This document shows positions 11,425 through 21,344 of a stretch of 64,000 bases of DNA, piece after piece (positions within the stretch are counted from its first letter, which is position 1; every line of letters begins with the position of its first letter). The notes beneath the pieces were generated by a model that searched no databases, was not told the origin of the DNA, and saw only the letters and a list, made by a program, of their open reading frames with translations. This stretch comes from Xylographa opegraphella. Taxonomy: Eukaryota. Location of the stretch: positions 1-64,000 of the forward strand of contig JALDZX010000025.1 of NCBI GenBank assembly GCA_022813865.1. The letters are read 5' to 3'. Made by a program: the position numbers and the translations under genes.

Positions 11425-14203
11425 CCCTGGGCCCGAGGGCAGACCGGACGAGGGTCACCCGAGAGCGGACTGCAGAAAAAAGGCAACAATGCCCTTCGGT
11501 AATGAAGTAACAAGATTCTGCGGAGGCGGAAATCGAAATGTGGCCCGCTGCATCATGACTCTGTGCATAATGGGTGACGCTTTGTAGCCGTACGAGTGGA
11601 AATGAAACGGGTCCCGGAATGGGTGACAATGTCTGCCCCCTTTGTTGCAATACCATCTAGGGGCGTTGGAGGGTCGATCTACTCAATGGGACTGCTCCGC
11701 TGGTGAGGAAAATGGGTAATACGAAATGGTATGTCTATAGGATGGAGACTTGTGACTATGATTAATGCAACTGGATGCCATCACACTTACATGCTTCTCT
11801 GATCGCGGTCCAACAAATGGGTCACAGTCTTCTCAGTGGCGTATTCCAACGAATTCCACTTCGCCGTTTATAGGAAAACTGATTTTAGCACACGACTTCC
11901 AACAGGAACGTCCTGATATCATATTGTTCAGCTTGCTCACTGCACCACGTATCCGCTCCTATATGCACTTCCGCATTTGGAGGCTGCTTCGGCAATTCCG
12001 AAATGCAGACAAGCATGTAAGCGTCTCCCCTGTACGTATTTTGTATGAATCGAAGGGGTACCCGATCCTGATAACTGCCTTCTAAATGCGGCAGAGCGAC
12101 TCGCCATCAAGCTTCATGCTCTGTGTGTTCTCTAAACATATTCGTCGGGATATATATACACGTTGGCTGGCAACAAGGACTGCTGTACCTGTGGAACCAC
12201 TGTCCTAGAGATATAGTACACCCAACTGGCAAGAGACTCGTCGTTCCGCGGAATGTTAGTACATATGTTTCTGGAGAATACCTTAATTCACGACTTCTGG
12301 CCAGTATCTTTCTGCTCGATTCTCAGACATACGTCCACAGTCTCTTAGCATGGTGAATTACCACACCAGCGATCATTGTTCTGAGTTTAATTGTAGGACC
12401 GTTCAATTGCCTCGCAGAGCTCGACATGTCATCTCAGTATAGTGGATATGCTTCGGGCATATATCATATACTAATCATATAATTTACTGACATCAGCAAC
12501 GCTCCGCTATACATTACATCGTCGAGCAGCATACTTGAGATTCTGTGATTCCTTTATTTCTGACTAGGCCCGCCAGTTAGATTCATGTACTCAACCAATC
12601 TCCATGTCATATCTCTGCAAGCAATTCTCACTGTCATGTCAAAGGAGCCAGTTGGTTCTCTGAACGAAGAGGCAATACATTGAATATAAACGCCACTTCC
12701 CCAAAGGAACGCCCGTTACTCACGAATTCAGTGTTAAGCCTTGTCTGCCGTACTGAAATATGGGGAGACCCAAAATGAAGCAGCCTGTCTTTAAGTCTGT
12801 TGAGAATCGTACCGACATACCGGGGCCACCCGGTCTCAGCGCACATAAAAAGAGCGGCTCATACTACCTTTCACCCAGCGCTTGTCGGTAGCCGCGTGAA
12901 CGAAATCTCCAAGGATAAGCAGGCTATAGTGATCGATGAAGACATACTCAGAGACTGAAAGCTCTCAAGACTCGAAGTGGCGGAGCCTCGAACATCATTT
13001 GCACTCCGCACCGTGCAGCTAATTACAACAAGACTGTGCCAGAACTGAGTCTGTAAATTCTGCTAGTGACGAAACTGTGTTCTGCTGCAATAGTTTCACG
13101 CAGTCCAACATCTTTGTGGATAGGGCTTTCTCAAACTTCACCGGCATCATCGTCTTGAATTTGGAGGCTACCTTTGCAGATTATTTTGAAACTTGTCAGT
13201 ATCAGATTCCCAGGATGATGACAATACGGAAACGTGGTGGATACGCAAAAGCCCGCAGATGTCCTGGAGTTATGAATCTTGAGGACTCGACAATAACATG
13301 TAATTGACAGGAGGGTAGTGACAGAGTATGCCTGGACTCAAAACTCTCGCTGCTTGATAGCGCGTAAAGGATGGTGTTGATGTCTCGTAGGCGACTGCAT
13401 TTAATCCATGAAGACTTCCACAATATTACACTCTCCTATCAAGAGTCAATTTTGCGATACTTCATTTGCCAGCTTTCCGGTTTGGATAATGTATCCCCTG
13501 AGAATTCTGCATTTATGCCGCCGCACAATCGAAACTCCTAGTCTCAAACTGCCACAAACAATGGAAGATAGGTGCTCTGACTTGCGCGAGGTGCTATCTA
13601 ATGGTAATTACAAGTCTACGATCTCTAAAGGACACTGGATAAAAGACCCGTGACTTGGTATTCGTTTGTTGCACCCTACGTGAATTGTGTCTTGGTGCTG
13701 GATCAGTGCAAGCATTTCAGAACAGGAGGGTCTCGGTGATGTGTAATCGTCTGTGAATTGATCTTCAGGTAGACATGATTGCGATTTGGTGTGTGACTGC
13801 GAGTCGTTTATGATATGGAATAGAATTCATACCAAGATTTCGCCAATGCATAGCTCGAACAGGAATTGGTGAGATGCCTACCCGGGCATTGATGCGCTGA
13901 TAAGCCAAGTAGATAGTTAAGCTGGTATATTATTTTAATATGGGTCTAGGAGACATCAATACTTCACGGAAGGCTATCTCGTACTAATTCAAGTACATAA
14001 TTGTCAACGATTTACCATTTAGGGTTCTGGCTAATCACATGATATCGGAGAAGTACTAAGCTCTGCTCCGTGCCTACAACAGTTTAGACCTCATCGATGC
14101 TAACGGCTTGTGTCAACTGTCACGAAATTTGAAGATTCAACAACAAGGCAACGATTTCCAAATATAAACCAGGACCTCTGCCGCTGGTAAAGAGGTAGTC
14201 ACG

Positions 14204-15505
14204 ATGTCGGCATCCCTGCCAGGCAGTCGCGACTTGCCCGCTTCGCAGTATGACCTTAGTACCTATTGGGGACGAGTGAAGCAGTCTGCAGAGATCTCAG
14301 ATCCGAGGTAAGGAGACCGACATCGTCTCACCAATGCTGGTGTGGTAGATCTAGGGCAAATGCTAGCCTTTCACCCCGAGGTCCCCATACTGATGAAGAG
14401 AGATCCTAGAACACTGTTCGTCTCTTCTGCAGGTCTCGAAAATGCAAAGAAGCTTGTCTCATCGTATAAGCAAGGTCAAACTAAGTCCATGACACCAGAG
14501 CTATGGCAGGCCAAGAAGATAGTAGACTCGACCCTCCACCCTGGTGGGTCCCTTTCGTTCAGAGCCATTGAGCGCACTGACTAATTTTCAGATACTGGCG
14601 AGCCCGTTATTCTCCCATTCCGCATGTCCTGCTTTGTAATCTCCAATCTGATTGTCACTGCTGGCATGCTCACACCAAACCTCCAAGTACATCTCCCTCG
14701 TTGTAATCAACGGCATCATTGAACCCTACTTTACCACAAGCTAATGGCACTCCAAGACAACAGGCACTCTCCTCTGGCAGATCACCAACCAATCTCTTAA
14801 TGTAGCTATCAACTCAGCCAACGCGAACAAATCCAGCCCCCTCGCTATCTCGAATCTCGTACAATCCTATCTTATTGCCGTTTCCGCTTCCTGTTCCGTT
14901 GCGCTCGGGCTTAAAGCGCTTGTTCCCCGTATAAGGCGTGTCTCTCCTGCTACAAAAGTGATACTTCAGCGCCTTGTACCATTCGCAGCGGTTGCTTCGG
15001 CCGGCGCACTTAACGTCTTTCTCATGCGGGGTGAAGAGATCCGGAGAGGTATCGATATATATCCTATGTTAAGCGAGGAAGAGATAATGAGGAAGGGACA
15101 AGACGACATAGAGACGAAAAGCCTTGGAAAGAGTAAAAAGGCGGCGACATTGGCGGTAGCAGAGACAGCATTGAGCCGTGTTCTTAACTCAACGCCTATC
15201 ATGGTGCTACCGCCGTTGATACTAGTGCGGTTGCAACGCATGGAATGGCTGCGGAGCCGGCCACGACTGACATTACCTGTCAACCTAGGTATTGCTACCC
15301 ATACCCGGAAGAGAAGAATGCTGCTATTGTTATCTATTGCTGAATAGTATCTGTAGGACTGATATTAACAACCTCGATCTTCGCTCTACCCCTCGCCTTG
15401 GCATCCTTCCCACAGAGGCAGGCAGTGCAAGCCCAGAGCTTGGAGGAAGAATTTTGGGACAAGGGAGGTGAAGGAGGAAAGGTAGAGTTCAATCGGGGAA
15501 TATAG
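14204..15505 (+). CDS. FSF1: Sideroflexin-family mitochondrial transporter (Fsf1), multi-exon
   Basis: YDLSTYWGRV...SDPR, LWQAKKIVDSTLHPDTGEP..LPFRMS, WQITNQSLNVAIN, RLVPFAAVASAG, C-terminal FNRGI*. Confidence 0.9.
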
Positions 15506-17173
15506 ATAAGTTGGAAACGGCGGCCTTGCTATGTATATAAGCTTAGGATACCTGATGATTTGCACATGTAATGTGTAGGAGGAATATACCACACTTGCAA
15601 CTTTGGGAGCTCACTACTAATATATTGTATAGACTTACTCAGCAATCCTGATACGAATTGAAGTTGTCTACCACTTCTTTCTCCTCACTGTGTGAACCCA
15701 AAAGATGCTGCATGCCTTTCACCTCCATGATCAGACTCGACGTGGTTCACAAAACCAGCGCTGGGGTTATGTACGCACTTCCCTGAGTTAAGCACCTCCA
15801 GCGCCGCTTTGGTTATCAAAGTGCGTTGGTGAGCTAGTCGTTCTTAACGACAGGGCGTTCAGGAAGCCGCCTCTCCGTCATGACTGACAGTCGTCCAGTA
15901 TGCATGCTCACAGAGTCACGGATGCTCGAGGAGCAATGTCTCTCAGGCTTCCGATCCTGCTTTGTGGTTCGCACTTCGCTATCTACTATCATTTTACTGT
16001 CTATGCAGATCTTTGAGATAAGCGAAATGTGCAAACTTATCGAATGCCTGGTAAGGCATGTTGTTCAAGGGGATAGAAGGGGCTTGGAGCTTGATAGGAG
16101 ATGCGAGGCAAGGGCATGAGGTAAGCCAACTCTTCAGACTGCCTTCACGGAAAAATCTGTCAGAATGTGGTAGAATAAGGAGAAATGGCACCACGCATTT
16201 GTTTTCAGATAAGGATGTATAGGTACCGTATCCGGCAAGCTTCTCGTACCCAGGGCCAACTATACAAAACTACATAGGAAGAGATTCAATATGATTTCAG
16301 CGAATGTTGGATAAAGATCGCACGCTCCGGTTTCAACGACGATCGTACTTCTGTCATATGAAAGGCGCAGTTCCAAATGGCTGCTTTTAATGGCGGTCGC
16401 GGGCTACGCTGGTAGTATACTATATAAGGCGGTGCACAGTTCTGCTTTGTGTCGCTTTCATGGATTGTACAATGCTCTAACATCAACAGGTTTTTTAACA
16501 TCATTGTGAGATCGACCACGGTAGTTAAGCCTCGGCGGAAATAGCTTCCACTCTTGCCAACAGTGGTCTACTTTCCTGTTCTTGCTGGAGTGTGTCTCTT
16601 ATTGTGATACTGAAGATACTATAAGATCGGCGATTCAATTCGATAAAGCAAGACTTCTCTTTGTGTTTCGTATAAGGATAAGAGATCGGTAAGCACCAAC
16701 GGGTCCACGATATGCTCCTATGGCTCTATCTATATAGCCACGTTGGTGGAGTTGCTGTTTGGAAAGTTCTTCACCACCTTATCCGGGGGGGAGGTGCCAA
16801 ACCTCGAGGCCGTTGACGGAGAGTCCTAAGCGGGAAGGCGAGGGAGTGTAAATAGTGCGGTGCCCATCCATCAGAATTGCATAGGACAGTAGCAGGAATA
16901 AAACACATTTGTGAAAACGGTACAACGGATATGTGATGGTCAGCAATTCACTCGATAGACGCGCCTCGTACATTTAACAAGGCCGCGGCATTCGATTAGC
17001 AAGGGTTGAAGTAGCATAGCACAATAGTAGAGACGACCGTTTATCACGGCCAATCATTGTTCCTGCTGGCACAGGCAGCCTCATGTGTGCCTTACCAGGG
17101 CCGAATGACCCGCTGCAAAACACTCAGAAATTCATGTCCTTGCGGAACGCCATTCCAAGCAGCATGCATGCGC

Positions 17174-17187
17174 AAAAAAAAGCAAAA
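17174..17187 (-). terminator. RNA polymerase III oligo-T terminator of the tRNA-Arg gene
   Basis: The minus strand reads TTTTGCTTTTTTTT (T4 then T8), starting 8 nt after the tRNA discriminator base. Confidence 0.8.
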
Positions 17188-17194
17188 GTCTAAG

Positions 17195-17326
17195 CGACCA
17201 CGGTGCGATTCGAACGCTGTTTCTTGTAAGTATTATTTCCGATTATTCATAGTTCTGGATATTTACCACAATCTCCAGTGTATTCCACCCCGAAAACTGG
17301 CGCCTTAACCATTAGGCCACGCGGCC
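17195..17326 (-). tRNA. tRNA-Arg(UCG) with a 9-nt canonical intron (17281-17289) and a 50-nt GT-AG insert in the T-stem (17217-17266)
   Basis: The spliced sequence folds as acceptor GGCCGCG/CGTGGTC, D-stem GCCT/AGGC (loop AATGGTTA), anticodon stem CCAGT/ACTGG (loop TT-TCG-G-C), variable loop AGATT, T-stem GTGCG/CGCAC with loop TTCGAAT, discriminator G. An oligo-T terminator lies downstream. Confidence 0.9.
17217..17266 (-). other. Putative U2-type spliceosomal intron inside the tRNA T-stem (between tRNA positions 51 and 52)
   Basis: Minus strand: GTAAATATCCAGAACTATGAATAATCGGAAATAATACTTACAAGAAACAG. It has donor GTAAAT, branch-like TACTTAC and acceptor CAG, and at 50 nt matches the length of mRNA introns in this window. 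Confidence 0.8.
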
Positions 17327-17834
17327 TGACGATGGAAAAACGATACATATTTCGATCTATAATTGACAGGACCTATGTTGCCCGTAAATCCGGGCAAATT
17401 CACAACATCGTATTGTGAGGTGAGAATAATGGAGGATAAATAGTAACTAGAGCCAACCCGAGATTATGGCAGCGTTCGTAGTGCTGGGATAGTTACGAAA
17501 AAATATACAGACCCGGCATTAACGCTTAGGGTTAAGTTTAGCAGCAGGAAAGCCGGGAGTTGGTGATTACTAGTAGCTTAGCAGCGAGCTCGGATGATGA
17601 GATCTTCCAATGCTCTCCAGAAAATAGATTGGGGGCACATGCCTTGCATTGTTGGGTCTCAACAGTATACAATCGTTGCCGGTAAAGCACTGATGTGACA
17701 TGAAGTTGCAGATGGCTTCACATGTTGCATGAGCTTTTGCAGTTATACAGAAAATGCCCTGACAGTATGGATGTCGTTGTCTAGTGATAATGCCATACAT
17801 CCATGTGTATCTATCTTTACAGTATCCTCAAATG

Positions 17835-20498
17835 CTAGTCATCACTCATCGCGGGCCCCATCCCTATACCCGTTTTTCTCGCCTTCCCAATCGCTAGCAA
17901 GCACTTGCCAACGCCGTCCAAATCCCCCAGAAGCCCCACATGTCCCCTTTCAGTCCGCACCTTCCCATTCTTGGCAACTTTGTAGCCTCTCGGTAACATC
18001 GCTGCACGAGCAAGGACCACCCCATCACCGCTGGCGAATGCCAAATCGTCATAAGCGTCGGCTCGCTGGATCGATTCACGTCCAGCAACACGGGCGCCGT
18101 AAACTGTGGGCACAGATGTCGAGTAAAGAATAGAGACGGGTGGATAGTTATTTGACGATGCGTGTTCCGGCTTGAATGCGGTTTCACGCTTGAAAGCCAA
18201 AACCTCAGCGAGCGTACGTTCGAGGTAGGCCAAAGCAGCCACAAGAGGCAATGTGGAGGAGCTTTGAGGCTGCGATGGCCCCAGTTGCACGTTTGCAGGT
18301 CCGGCATAACCTTCGTTAGTTCTGGCTGCTGTATTGACGGTGTTAGATGACGGAACTGTTCGAGACGTGGTACCACCGGAGATCTTTCTTGGTCCCAGAG
18401 CCGGGAGACTCACAGCCATTGATCCCAGTAGCCCTTTCCGCTCCGGTTGGTTGATAGGAGGCAGCGCCGTGGCAATACAAGGGGAAAAAGCGTATTTCTT
18501 CCACGATTCTATGTTGAAGAAATCGACATGATATTCCTCGTTCGTCACTTTGTTGATAAAACATTGACCGCTTTCTGGTAATAGGACAAAGCTAGTTCTA
18601 AGTGTGAAGTTCACTTGTGCGGTCAAGACTCTTGAGCTTAGTAGAACCTCGTCACCACTCCGAAGAGGCCCAAGGATGTTAATACAGTGTTGGGGGACTC
18701 CGGCATAGACTACGCCCGCAAACAGGCTTGGAACCCGGTTGACCACATGTCGAGTGATAATACCCCCGAGGCTGTGGGCAATAACAGTGGCACCTCTTTC
18801 ATGTACGGGTATATCCGCTTGGTTACACGCCAGTTGTCTAAGGAATGCTTCGAGCTGTCGACTTAACAGATGAGGACTCAATCGCCAGTCATAGCCATAG
18901 TCATGTACTCTCAGTCTACCCTCTCGAGCGTTTTTACAATGTCTCAGCCTCTTTAGCAAACGGCGAGAAATATCCACAGGGCCTATGTGTGTAAGCATTC
19001 CCGACGCGAAGATGGTATTCTCCATGGTATCTTCATCTACATGTTCAAGACCAACCTCTAGATTGACCTTCCGAATATTTAAACCAACTTTGACCGGAAC
19101 CCAAAGCTGACGATGAGGTGCCTCTGCTGACCGAAGTATCGAGCCCCTATAGCCTCCCATCAATACTATATCGCCAATCAAGTGGTCCAAGGCAGTGTGG
19201 AGATTCTGATGAGGTGCTTTTGATGACGCTAGAGAATACTTTTGTCCGTAAGCGGAAGCTATTTCCTGCTCCTTTTCACGGGTCAAATTGCTGCTTCCGG
19301 GATAGCTTTTCATGGGAAAATTTGGGACAGCAGAATCGCTTGTGGTTCGTTTGTGGGTAAAGTCTGGTCGGAATGCACTGAAATTGATGTTCGATAAACT
19401 TGGAAGCTTCAACGCAGAGTCCTGGAAACTATCCTTGATCGCTTTCATCCTGCTGTTAACCTGCCCACGTACATCAACCCAACGGCTATCGTCACCCAGC
19501 GACGACACTCTGGACATCGCACTCCGCAACGGTAGCGACTGGTCTGATGCGATTTTCCGTAAGTGGACCAGTCCGCCTTGTGAATTGTGTGAACTTTGAT
19601 CCACAGCTCCGAGCTGCATGTTTGGATTTTGAGAGTGTTGCAGCTGGAGAGGAGCTGGTCGAGACGTTGAATGATCTATTTTATTGCACTTACCTGTGTA
19701 TTCTTTCTGTGCTTTGAGACTTGGCGGGCTTTCTCGCAACCTCTGTGATTTGTTATTCGGATTGAAGCCGAACCTCGGTAGGAACACAGAGTTTGACCTT
19801 CCAGAACGAGCCGACACTGGATGTACCCCATCTGTCTCTTTCTCGCCGCTGACCATAGAAGTTATGCGCGGCAACGTGAAGTCCTTGAACAAGCCTTGGT
19901 CACCCAGGCTAGGCAGACTGAAGCTTGCCCAGAAGCGCTTGATGTTTAGATCTGCTAGCATACCCGTAGGCTCGGTATATGATTGAATCTGCTCGTGGAT
20001 CCTGGGTCCAGATCTCCACGGAGATGGTAAGAGTTGCGAACCAGTTGGTGATAGTTCGCGCGAGCACGTTGAAAGGTCCATGGCACTACTGCGCAAAGGG
20101 TGCTGCAAGACTGGTCGTGTGTGCTGCTCTGCTTCTTCAGCTGTCTCGTTATCTTGCGGACCCCATCCCCACAACCCGCTGACGGCAGCGACCTTCTCAG
20201 CAGCTGGTATCGCTGGAGACGTAAGCCTCGTCTGTTCTCTCCCGATACTGACGCCCAGTATAGACTGCACGTCCTCTTCCCGTATAGTGTATTCATCGTG
20301 GCTCATTTCTTCATGATCTAATTCAACGTAATCTGACTTAATTGTAAGCGGAAGTCCATTGGAAGACATCTGGGGCGGCAGAGCTGTGAATCCTGCTGAA
20401 TCCGTATCACCACGTAAGCGTCCAAGATTTGCTGACTCCGGTAGTTCGTGCACTGGAAGTGGTGTTGAACCTCGATTTTCTACTGTTGAAGGGTCCAT
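17835..20498 (-). CDS. Uncharacterised 887-aa protein with a C-terminal LCAT-like alpha/beta-hydrolase domain
   Basis: Intronless ORF with disordered N-terminal half, GGYRGSILR, YDWRL, nucleophile elbow AHSLGG, GDGVV and a terminal His (RGHVGLL). Confidence 0.8.
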   Translation of the reverse strand: MDPSTVENRGSTPLPVHELPESANLGRLRGDTDSAGFTALPPQMSSNGLPLTIKSDYVELDHEEMSHDEYTIREEDVQSILGVSIGREQTRLTSPAIPAAEKVAAVSGLWGWGPQDNETAEEAEQHTRPVLQHPLRSSAMDLSTCSRELSPTGSQLLPSPWRSGPRIHEQIQSYTEPTGMLADLNIKRFWASFSLPSLGDQGLFKDFTLPRITSMVSGEKETDGVHPVSARSGRSNSVFLPRFGFNPNNKSQRLRESPPSLKAQKEYTGKCNKIDHSTSRPAPLQLQHSQNPNMQLGAVDQSSHNSQGGLVHLRKIASDQSLPLRSAMSRVSSLGDDSRWVDVRGQVNSRMKAIKDSFQDSALKLPSLSNINFSAFRPDFTHKRTTSDSAVPNFPMKSYPGSSNLTREKEQEIASAYGQKYSLASSKAPHQNLHTALDHLIGDIVLMGGYRGSILRSAEAPHRQLWVPVKVGLNIRKVNLEVGLEHVDEDTMENTIFASGMLTHIGPVDISRRLLKRLRHCKNAREGRLRVHDYGYDWRLSPHLLSRQLEAFLRQLACNQADIPVHERGATVIAHSLGGIITRHVVNRVPSLFAGVVYAGVPQHCINILGPLRSGDEVLLSSRVLTAQVNFTLRTSFVLLPESGQCFINKVTNEEYHVDFFNIESWKKYAFSPCIATALPPINQPERKGLLGSMAVSLPALGPRKISGGTTSRTVPSSNTVNTAARTNEGYAGPANVQLGPSQPQSSSTLPLVAALAYLERTLAEVLAFKRETAFKPEHASSNNYPPVSILYSTSVPTVYGARVAGRESIQRADAYDDLAFASGDGVVLARAAMLPRGYKVAKNGKVRTERGHVGLLGDLDGVGKCLLAIGKARKTGIGMGPAMSDD

Positions 20499-21344
20499 GG
20501 ATTATGATATAAAAGCCTCACGAGGTATGGAAATGAAAAAGTGTGTGATGGAGTCTATGAATAATCAGCGGACTGGAGAATCAGCATCGCAGCGCTGATG
20601 AATTCATGTTAGCACGCGGAATGCATGTGTGGATTGTATCGGCATGCAGGCAGCTGGCGGTCAGAGTGCCAGAGTCATCAAGGAGTCCTGTAGCCGGCTG
20701 ATCCGGTAGCACACGGAAGGAGTGGCCCCTCAGCTGCATTTTGTTGTCGGGAACGAAGCCAACGATAACTTGAAAGAAACAGAGTATCTGATTGCAGGGT
20801 GCACCTTGAACGATTGGTTAGTTTTTGTTGGATCACGACACTTGCGGCTTTGTACGTGGTGAAGGAGAAAGAGAGGAAACGGCTGTTTTGATTGATATTT
20901 CTTGTGCACCTTGTGCCAACCCCGATGTATGGAAATCCTTGGGGCCATACCAATAATGCATACTGTACGAGAAGTGCATTATAAGATGTATACTCCCGTC
21001 TTTGGGTACTACCTTTGTGTATCTACTACCTTAGTAATAGGATACCTCCGTACGGGAGTAAGGTACCGCATGTTGTTTCAGCGGGCTCGGCGGGGTAATG
21101 GCCGGAACATGACGTGTTTGTCAAAGGCCACCAAGATTTATCTCTACCAACCAATCCAAGCCAATCAGCGCCCCTGACAACGCGATGTTGGACGTGCTAC
21201 TTCTACAATCATGTGGTGTCGAGCTCTCCATCTGTCCTCCAGATACACCTATTCCTGGCACACCCATGGAAAAGTTCTGTTGTTTGATTCATCGTCCAAC
21301 GAGAGATATCGAAGGAACGCCAGCAAAAGCTTCAAAGCCACTCT

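Follow-up and report, generated by a model that had tools for sequence, protein, structure and literature searches.

The 64-kb stretch of DNA analysed here, termed the window, contains a tRNA-Arg(UCG) gene that is interrupted twice, by a 9-nt intron in the anticodon loop and by a 50-nt insert in the T-stem. Its sequence signals make a spliceosomal-type intron the best reading of this insert. It appears likely, and is proposed here with moderate confidence, that the locus is a working nuclear gene whose precursor would need the spliceosome first and the tRNA endonuclease second, and the mRNA-splicing machinery is probably needed for tRNA-Arg(UCG) maturation. The features of the locus and of its surroundings are the following.

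17195..17326, minus strand: tRNA-Arg(UCG) gene, recognised by ARAGORN after in-silico removal of the insert and by Rfam RF00005, with 21/21 stem pairs
17290..17326, minus strand: exon 1, tRNA nucleotides 1-37, with the A box TGGCCTAATGG at 17319-17309
17281..17289, minus strand: 9-nt intron GGTGGAATA of TSEN type at the 37/38 site, between G37 and C38
17267..17280, minus strand: exon 2, tRNA nucleotides 38-51, comprising the 3' strand of the anticodon stem, the variable loop and the first 3 nt of the T-stem
17217..17266, minus strand: predicted 50-nt spliceosomal-type intron between nucleotides 51 and 52, within the 5' strand of the T-stem
17195..17216, minus strand: exon 3, tRNA nucleotides 52-73, with the B-box core GTTCGAATC at 17215-17207
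17174..17187, minus strand: Pol III-type terminator downstream of the gene, comprising T4 (17187-17184) and T8 (17181-17174)
17356..17362, minus strand: TATA-like TTATAGA, -36 to -30 from nucleotide 1, read from the sequence
14204..15505, plus strand: sideroflexin gene with four introns, in many fungi the conserved neighbour of tRNA-Arg(UCG)
17835..20501, minus strand: gene with a single exon whose 887-aa product belongs to no known family (P0205 at 100% identity and coverage)

On the minus strand, nucleotide 1 of the tRNA lies at 17326, the discriminator G73 at 17195 and the anticodon TCG at 17293-17291. When both intervening stretches are removed, the stems comprise 19 Watson-Crick and 2 G-U pairs with 0 mismatches, the anticodon stem being CCAGT/ACTGG. 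The elements that define a functional Pol III tRNA gene, namely a cloverleaf, an A box, a B box and a T-run terminator, are all present, and the A box and B-box core fit the consensus. The TTATAGA element is a possible upstream promoter element. The canonical 37/38 position of tRNA introns is occupied by the 9-nt intron, while the 50-nt insert lies at 51/52. The sequence-only reading had placed the A box upstream of the insert and the B-box core wholly downstream of it, and had described stems of Watson-Crick and two G-U pairs only, an insert free of terminating T runs, a T8 terminator after the gene and a separate 9-nt intron at 37/38. These features are all borne out, with a longest T run of 2 in the insert, the additional T4 in the terminator and a one-base shift of the small intron in ARAGORN. 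Its further view that the gene looks functional is supported by the perfect stems, by A and B boxes that are both intact, by the T-run terminator and by the lack of T runs in the insert.

ARAGORN reported no tRNA in the whole 64-kb window and none in the intact locus. Cutting out the 50 nt in silico yielded a tRNA-Arg(tcg) with a 9-nt anticodon-loop intron, and cutting out both the 9-nt and the 50-nt stretches yielded a plain tRNA. The ARAGORN placement of the 9-nt intron is one base off relative to 17289-17281, and the latter is preferred because it restores the G37-C38 of intronless relatives. Rfam RF00005 matched 17195-17326 (minus strand, model positions 1-71) with 28.9 bits and an E value of 0.0015 in a 1.5-kb search, the two stretches being modelled as 12-nt and 61-nt insertions. 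The score of the uncut locus falls 0.1 below the gathering score of 29, and at the gathering threshold the Rfam tRNA model had no match in the window. No second tRNA was found within the 64-kb window by ARAGORN, Rfam or the intron-removal scan described below, nor by Rfam at E up to 10 over 11500-16600, near the sideroflexin gene.

The insert (17266-17217) begins with GTAAAT, ends with ACAG and contains 28% G+C, compared with 46-57% in 4-kb windows. Its borders were set by the tRNA structure, not by motif, and they slide by one base only (alternative GG..CA), so that the GT..AG borders typical of spliceosomal introns are one of two readings. A candidate branch site is provided by the YTNAY motif CTTAC at 17230-17226, whose A (17227) is 10 nt away from the 3' border; this motif fits YTNAY but not the fungal CTRAY. 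Among random 45-60-nt segments of the window, 1343 of 2,000,000 displayed GT..AG with YTNAY located 8-20 nt from the 3' end, a chance rate for this architecture of about 7 in 10,000. The insert adopts no stable fold (-0.9 kcal/mol). A group I or group II self-splicing intron was rejected, as the insert measures only 50 nt and lacks a stable fold, against the hundreds of nucleotides of a ribozyme core, and no Rfam intron family was detected in 16500-18000 at E up to 10. Looked at as a possible mobile intron-like element (introner or MITE), the insert has no second copy elsewhere in the 64-kb window, where the next best match covers 16 nt, and no direct repeat was noticed on its flanks.

Ten mRNA introns predicted in the window, by homology or from a deposited gene model, served for comparison. 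Four belong to the sideroflexin gene, mapped by homology to P0007 (102, 48, 70 and 68 nt), and six to SMC5, where they fit exactly the deposited model P0121 (55, 52, 52, 47, 48 and 83 nt). Their lengths thus span 47-102 nt with a median of about 53, a range that includes the 50-nt insert, and in length and composition the insert resembles the mRNA introns of its own genome. Their 5' ends are only loosely alike and read GTAAGG, GTGGGT, GTACAT, GTATTG, GTCAGC, GTAAGC, GTACAT, GTAACT, GTCTGT and GTATGT, seven of the ten sharing the GTA of the insert. A CTRAN-type branch motif is present in nine of them and CTCAC, comparable to CTTAC in lacking R at the third position, in the tenth. The 3' ends are YAG in 9/10 and AAG in 1/10, the insert terminating in CAG. 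From its sequence the insert has the anatomy of the genome's own mRNA introns, though its branch motif is not of the commonest kind.

Comparable genes were sought in metagenome contigs. The exact 28-nt 5' half of the window gene had no match in these contigs, and a looser pattern, consisting of nucleotides 8-26 plus NNNNNNTTCG, retrieved 55 tRNA-Arg(UCG) loci. Nucleotides 8-26 of exon 1 and TTCG (nucleotides 33-36) agree with this pattern, and the exon 3 region is identical to locus L018 over 26/26 nt (window 17192-17217) and to L045 over 25/25 nt (17193-17217). ARAGORN called 51/55 loci as tRNA-Arg(tcg), some with a 7-14-nt anticodon-loop intron. Each of the four loci it missed, which represent three distinct genes, is interrupted by a GT..AG insert of 53-55 nt that has CTAAC at 11-12 nt before its 3' end.

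L023: 53-nt insert between T55 and C56 (T-loop), GTTCGT at the 5' end, CTAAC with its A 11 nt from the end, AAG at the 3' end
L028 (L049 identical): 55-nt insert between G7 and T8, GTCAGT at the 5' end, CTAAC at 12 nt, AAG at the 3' end
L032: 54-nt insert at the 7/8 site, GTTAGT at the 5' end, CTAAC at 11 nt, CAG at the 3' end

L028 and L049 are identical over 1873 nt. Anticodon-loop introns are also present in L023, L028/L049 and L032 (9, 20 and 12 nt, respectively), and all three genes display 21/21 stem pairs once the inserts are removed. The borders of the L023 insert are uniquely fixed by the tRNA sequence. In none of the interrupted genes does a T run within the insert exceed 3. As the pattern demanded intact nucleotides 8-36, inserts located there could not be found, and 4/55 is therefore a lower bound. 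An intron-removal scan of the window and the 55 loci, in which 12,654 GT..AG candidates with a branch-like motif were each run through ARAGORN, returned 39 rows. Seven of these belong to the five interrupted loci already described, and the remaining 32 to loci whose tRNA-Arg(UCG) is intact, so that no new gene was recovered. A junction at nucleotide 26 in L006 and L019, the only such row type inspected, proved to be an artefact.

L028 and L032 are from distinct organisms, their inserts and flanks being unlike, and share the position of the insert. They differ at acceptor pair 6:67, which is A:T in one against C:G in the other, and at T-stem pair 49:65, which is G:C against C:G, both changes being compensatory. 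The change at 6:67 falls in the 7-nt first exon, a stretch that has meaning only once the insert is removed, and the short exon is therefore under selection to pair with the 3' end. The claim of the sequence-only reading that the insert is of spliceosomal type gains support from these three further distinct genes of environmental fungal DNA and their compensatory changes. Other comparisons concern presence and absence. Once its two inserts are taken out, L023 has exactly the tRNA sequence found at the intronless loci L001, L020, L043 and L046. The relatives of L028, L007 and L014, have no 7/8 insert; their 5' flanks are collinear with that of L028 up to G7, and they share its 3' trailer with a hairpin and a T run, so that the 7/8 insert is a clean presence/absence difference between orthologous loci.

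An origin of the inserts by tandem duplication of the gene's own 3' part was considered and found unsupported. In a MAFFT alignment the L023 insert fell with its first part opposite the 3' exon and the trailer of L001, but local alignments did not rise above shuffled sequences (448/2000 and 1801/5000), and the outcome was the same for the window, L028 and L032.

The proteins encoded in the window are fungal, and its host is a lichen-forming Lecanoromycete (ascomycete), either X. opegraphella or a species very close to it. The sideroflexin ORF displays 91% identity to a protein of Xylographa pallens and the SMC5 piece 100% identity to a protein of Xylographa opegraphella. The sideroflexin gene adjoins tRNA-Arg(UCG) in 11/55 metagenome loci, where the two are divergent and 120-600 bp apart; in the window they are convergent and 1.7 kb apart. 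This adjacency, found in the 11 loci and in the window, indicates that the window gene sits in a conserved neighbourhood. The taxon of L023 was assigned solely by tRNA identity to loci with a window-like sideroflexin gene next door, and Pfam identified no family in the three ORFs flanking L023.

These data bear on whether the window gene is alive. It could instead be a disabled gene that suffered a recent intron-like insertion, from a mobile introner, repair filler or a reverse-spliced intron, which is not or too poorly removed, decoding being left to another copy or to an inosine-bearing tRNA-Arg(ACG). In six long ORFs of the window arginine is encoded most often by CGA (59/290), a codon that such an inosine-bearing tRNA-Arg(ACG) could read as well if the genome contains it. 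The dependence of CGA decoding on the spliceosome that the sequence-only reading suggested would hinge on the number of UCG genes. The splice signals of the window insert (GTAAAT, and CTTAC instead of CTRAY) are the weakest among the four interrupted genes, weaker than those of the metagenome cases, and the intronless twins of L023 occur in other assemblies. According to a review (PMC4090602), non-canonical introns in eukaryotic nuclear tRNA genes were generally supposed to mark pseudogenes. The exons, however, are free of defects, with all 21 pairs, both boxes and the terminator intact, the gene lies within the conserved sideroflexin neighbourhood and no other tRNA was found in the 64-kb window. 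In addition, four independent genes are alike in anatomy, and two of them share the insert position together with compensatory exon changes, which dead genes would not keep. Disablement of the window gene is therefore considered rather unlikely.

Removal of the 50-nt insert by a protein enzyme is a further alternative, in which the tRNA splicing endonuclease would recognise a bulge-helix-bulge motif, as in archaea, Cyanidioschyzon merolae and nucleomorphs. TSEN is already needed for the 9-nt intron, and some algal tRNA genes have non-canonical introns excised from the D- or T-arm (PMC4090602). A home-made test, unvalidated on known cases, nevertheless revealed no 4-bp helix with 3-nt bulges at any of the four inserts, the best score being 2/4 central pairs for the window insert and 3/4 for the other inserts. 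The lack of a stable fold in the window insert also argues against such a substrate, as does the occurrence in all four inserts of GT..AG together with YTNAY/CTAAC at 10-12 nt, signals that cleavage by TSEN would not require. Endonuclease cleavage of the large insert thus seems very improbable.

A Pol II route is another alternative. The transcript, arising by read-through from the 887-aa gene or from a promoter of its own, would be spliced co-transcriptionally like any mRNA, and RNase P and RNase Z would afterwards release the tRNA. The 887-aa gene lies upstream on the same strand, its stop only 509 nt away from the tRNA. In the genes interrupted at 7/8 (L028 and L032) the A box is located 54-55 nt further from the first exon than usual, an observation that counts against the proposed Pol III route. 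A displaced A box is awkward for start-site placement guided by TFIIIC, and the widened gap would suit an upstream promoter better than TFIIIC-set initiation; a TATAAAAAATAAAA block is present about 45-58 nt upstream of the first exon of L032. In contrast, Pol III-type T runs follow closely in all interrupted loci: 5/5 interrupted loci and 47/56 genes overall (the 55 loci plus the window) have a T>=5 run no more than 60 nt beyond the 3' end, whereas 2149/20000 random 65-nt stretches contain one. The A and B boxes are intact, the T runs of the inserts do not exceed 3, and in most relatives the tRNA gene is a stand-alone unit, divergent from the sideroflexin gene at 120-600 bp. Taken together, a Pol II origin of the tRNA is distinctly unlikely.

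Under the preferred reading of a working gene matured by the spliceosome and then the endonuclease, RNA polymerase III, directed by the internal boxes, would transcribe through both introns. The distance from the A box to the B box is stretched by 59 nt in the window gene, and stretched distances of this type are tolerated by TFIIIC. Both introns stay at T runs of 2 or less, and nowhere in the gene is a run longer than the TTTT found in the anticodon arm. In the nucleus the spliceosome would then release the 50-nt intron as a lariat branched at the A at 17227, restoring the T-stem and the elbow of the tRNA. Only then would the folded, end-processed precursor be exported, after which tRNA splicing endonuclease and ligase would cut and join it at 37/38. 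The order put forward in the sequence-only reading, spliceosome before TSEN, is reasonable: in S. cerevisiae and S. pombe TSEN is described on the mitochondrial outer membrane, outside the nucleus (PMC10485636), and a nuclear spliceosome step would accordingly precede it if the same location applies in Lecanoromycetes.

In the textbook account of eukaryotic tRNA maturation there is one type of intron, at one site, removed by a protein enzyme. No description of spliceosomal introns in tRNA genes was found in a literature search whose coverage excludes most subscription journals; the phrases "spliceosomal intron(s) in tRNA" had 0 occurrences in the literature searched, and the word stem "spliceosom" had 0 occurrences in the text of the tRNA-intron review PMC4090602. 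The present analysis contributes the T-stem case in a lichen fungus, three more distinct tRNA-Arg(UCG) genes interrupted at two other sites, the covariation across an insert and the orthologous loci with and without the insert. At about even chances, spliceosomal introns are recurrent and selectively kept in ascomycete nuclear tRNA genes, having been gained repeatedly (at nucleotides 7/8, 51/52 and 55/56 of tRNA-Arg(UCG)), and some tRNAs would mature only by way of two unrelated splicing systems in a fixed order. If the inserts are spliced, the spliceosome acts on a Pol III tRNA precursor, and the supply of tRNA is dependent on it. Gene finders would then miss real tRNA genes, as ARAGORN does with 4/55 loci and the window gene and Rfam by 0.1 bit, and fungal tRNA sets would be under-counted. 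The set of non-coding hosts (U1, U2, U5, U6, U3 and rRNA) would likewise widen to tRNA, which bears on the origin of new introns because tRNA lies outside the spliceosome core. The orthologous pairs L028 versus L007 and L023 versus L001 provide clean cases of intron gain or loss. In lichen fungi, such tRNA introns may, together with the ectopic introns of rDNA, act as a brake coupling the capacity for translation to that of the spliceosome.

Close in position are the tRNA introns of archaea, Cyanidioschyzon merolae and nucleomorphs, which according to PMC4090602 occur outside 37/38, including in the T arm; one tRNA gene can have several introns, often with a canonical one among them. The window gene resembles them in the position of its insert and in its combination with a canonical intron. 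Bulge-helix-bulge introns are, however, defined by their fold and cut by the tRNA endonuclease, while here no such motif was found and the borders and the candidate branch motif are of spliceosomal type. In kind of intron, fungal U6 snRNA is a close precedent. The spliceosome is reported to remove an intron from the transcript of the sole U6 gene of S. pombe, which is made by Pol III, and many fungi have U6 introns that bear canonical signals (Canzler et al. 2016, cited in PMC5855946). As in the window gene with its candidate branch site, a short GT..AG intron with a branch site lies inside a small structured Pol III RNA gene, and these introns are species-specific, vary in position and are otherwise not conserved. 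The present host differs in being a tRNA, with a second intron for a different enzyme system. A tRNA is no component of the spliceosome, and proximity to its catalytic centre therefore cannot explain the insertion. The hosts of spliceosomal introns listed in PMC5855946 are U1, U2, U5, U6 and rRNA, tRNA not being among them. Fungal U3 snoRNA genes also contain spliceosomal introns, at few characteristic positions and mostly inferred by computation (PMC5832005); they are likewise small non-coding RNA genes, but the host RNA is another one and there is no second, enzyme-spliced intron. Finally, the rDNA of lichen-forming ascomycetes carries spliceosomal introns (Bhattacharya et al. 2000, cited in PMC8527467), among them a 57-bp intron in Cladonia grayi, and yeast correctly removed such an intron from Pol I rRNA (PMC8527467). 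Both systems combine a lichen mycobiont with an mRNA-type intron in a gene that Pol II does not transcribe or, for the tRNA gene, probably does not. They differ in that the rDNA introns reside in rRNA made by Pol I, whereas the present intron resides in a Pol III-type tRNA gene whose internal promoter it splits.

Two further metagenome loci, L028 and L032, carry tRNA-Arg(UCG) genes that are split between nucleotides 7 and 8 by a GT..AG insert of 54-55 nt containing a CTAAC branch motif; a third, L049, is identical in sequence to L028. Exon 1 of these genes comprises just 7 nt, and the A box is displaced 54-55 nt downstream of its usual position. The 5' flanks of L028 and of two other metagenome loci, L007 and L014, display a conserved block, TCGTAT..ATAAGC, located about -45 to -20 from nucleotide 1. 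The distance separating this block from exon 1 is equal in the presence or absence of the 7/8 insert, and the block may constitute an upstream promoter element. The 3' trailers of L007, L014, L017, L034, L039, L028 and L049 contain a conserved hairpin, GAAGC.TAGCTTC, positioned after the tRNA 3' end and before the T run.

A different site is interrupted in the following metagenome gene:

about 1536 down to 1402 of the locus, minus strand: tRNA-Arg(UCG) gene of L023

Here a 53-nt GT..AG insert lies at 55/56, within the T-loop, and splits the B box itself, and an intron of 9 nt is located in the anticodon loop. Removal of both leaves a sequence identical to that of the intronless genes L001, L020, L043 and L046.

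The acceptor stem of the window gene is shared with eight metagenome genes (L003, L018, L024, L026, L029, L041, L045 and L054), all of which have a variable region with one additional T (AGATTT). Three of these, L018, L045 and L054, also possess exactly the T-arm of the window gene and differ from it at three pairs of the anticodon stem, all fully compensatory.

In distantly related fungi, tRNA-Arg(UCG) adjoins a sideroflexin gene, as observed in the window (sideroflexin gene at 14204-15505) and at 11 metagenome loci (L003, L007, L020, L024, L025, L026, L029, L041, L043, L046 and L047), in nine of which the sideroflexin gene retains 65-68% nucleotide identity across most of its length. The two genes are usually divergent and separated by 120-600 bp. 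Those of the window converge at a distance of 1.7 kb, a difference suggestive of a local rearrangement. The window also includes a protein-coding gene:

17835-20501, minus strand: single-exon gene encoding an 887-aa protein, no Pfam family

This protein, matched by P0205, has more than 1000 homologues, chiefly in lichen fungi and metagenomes. Judging from the names of the protein matches, homologues of sideroflexin and of P0205 carry locus tags that are two apart in Lambiella, Toensbergia, Circinaria and Loxospora, all of them Lecanoromycetes, so that the pair flanks a single annotated gene. The window has its tRNA gene at the corresponding place, and the intervening gene of the four other Lecanoromycetes might be the orthologous tRNA gene.
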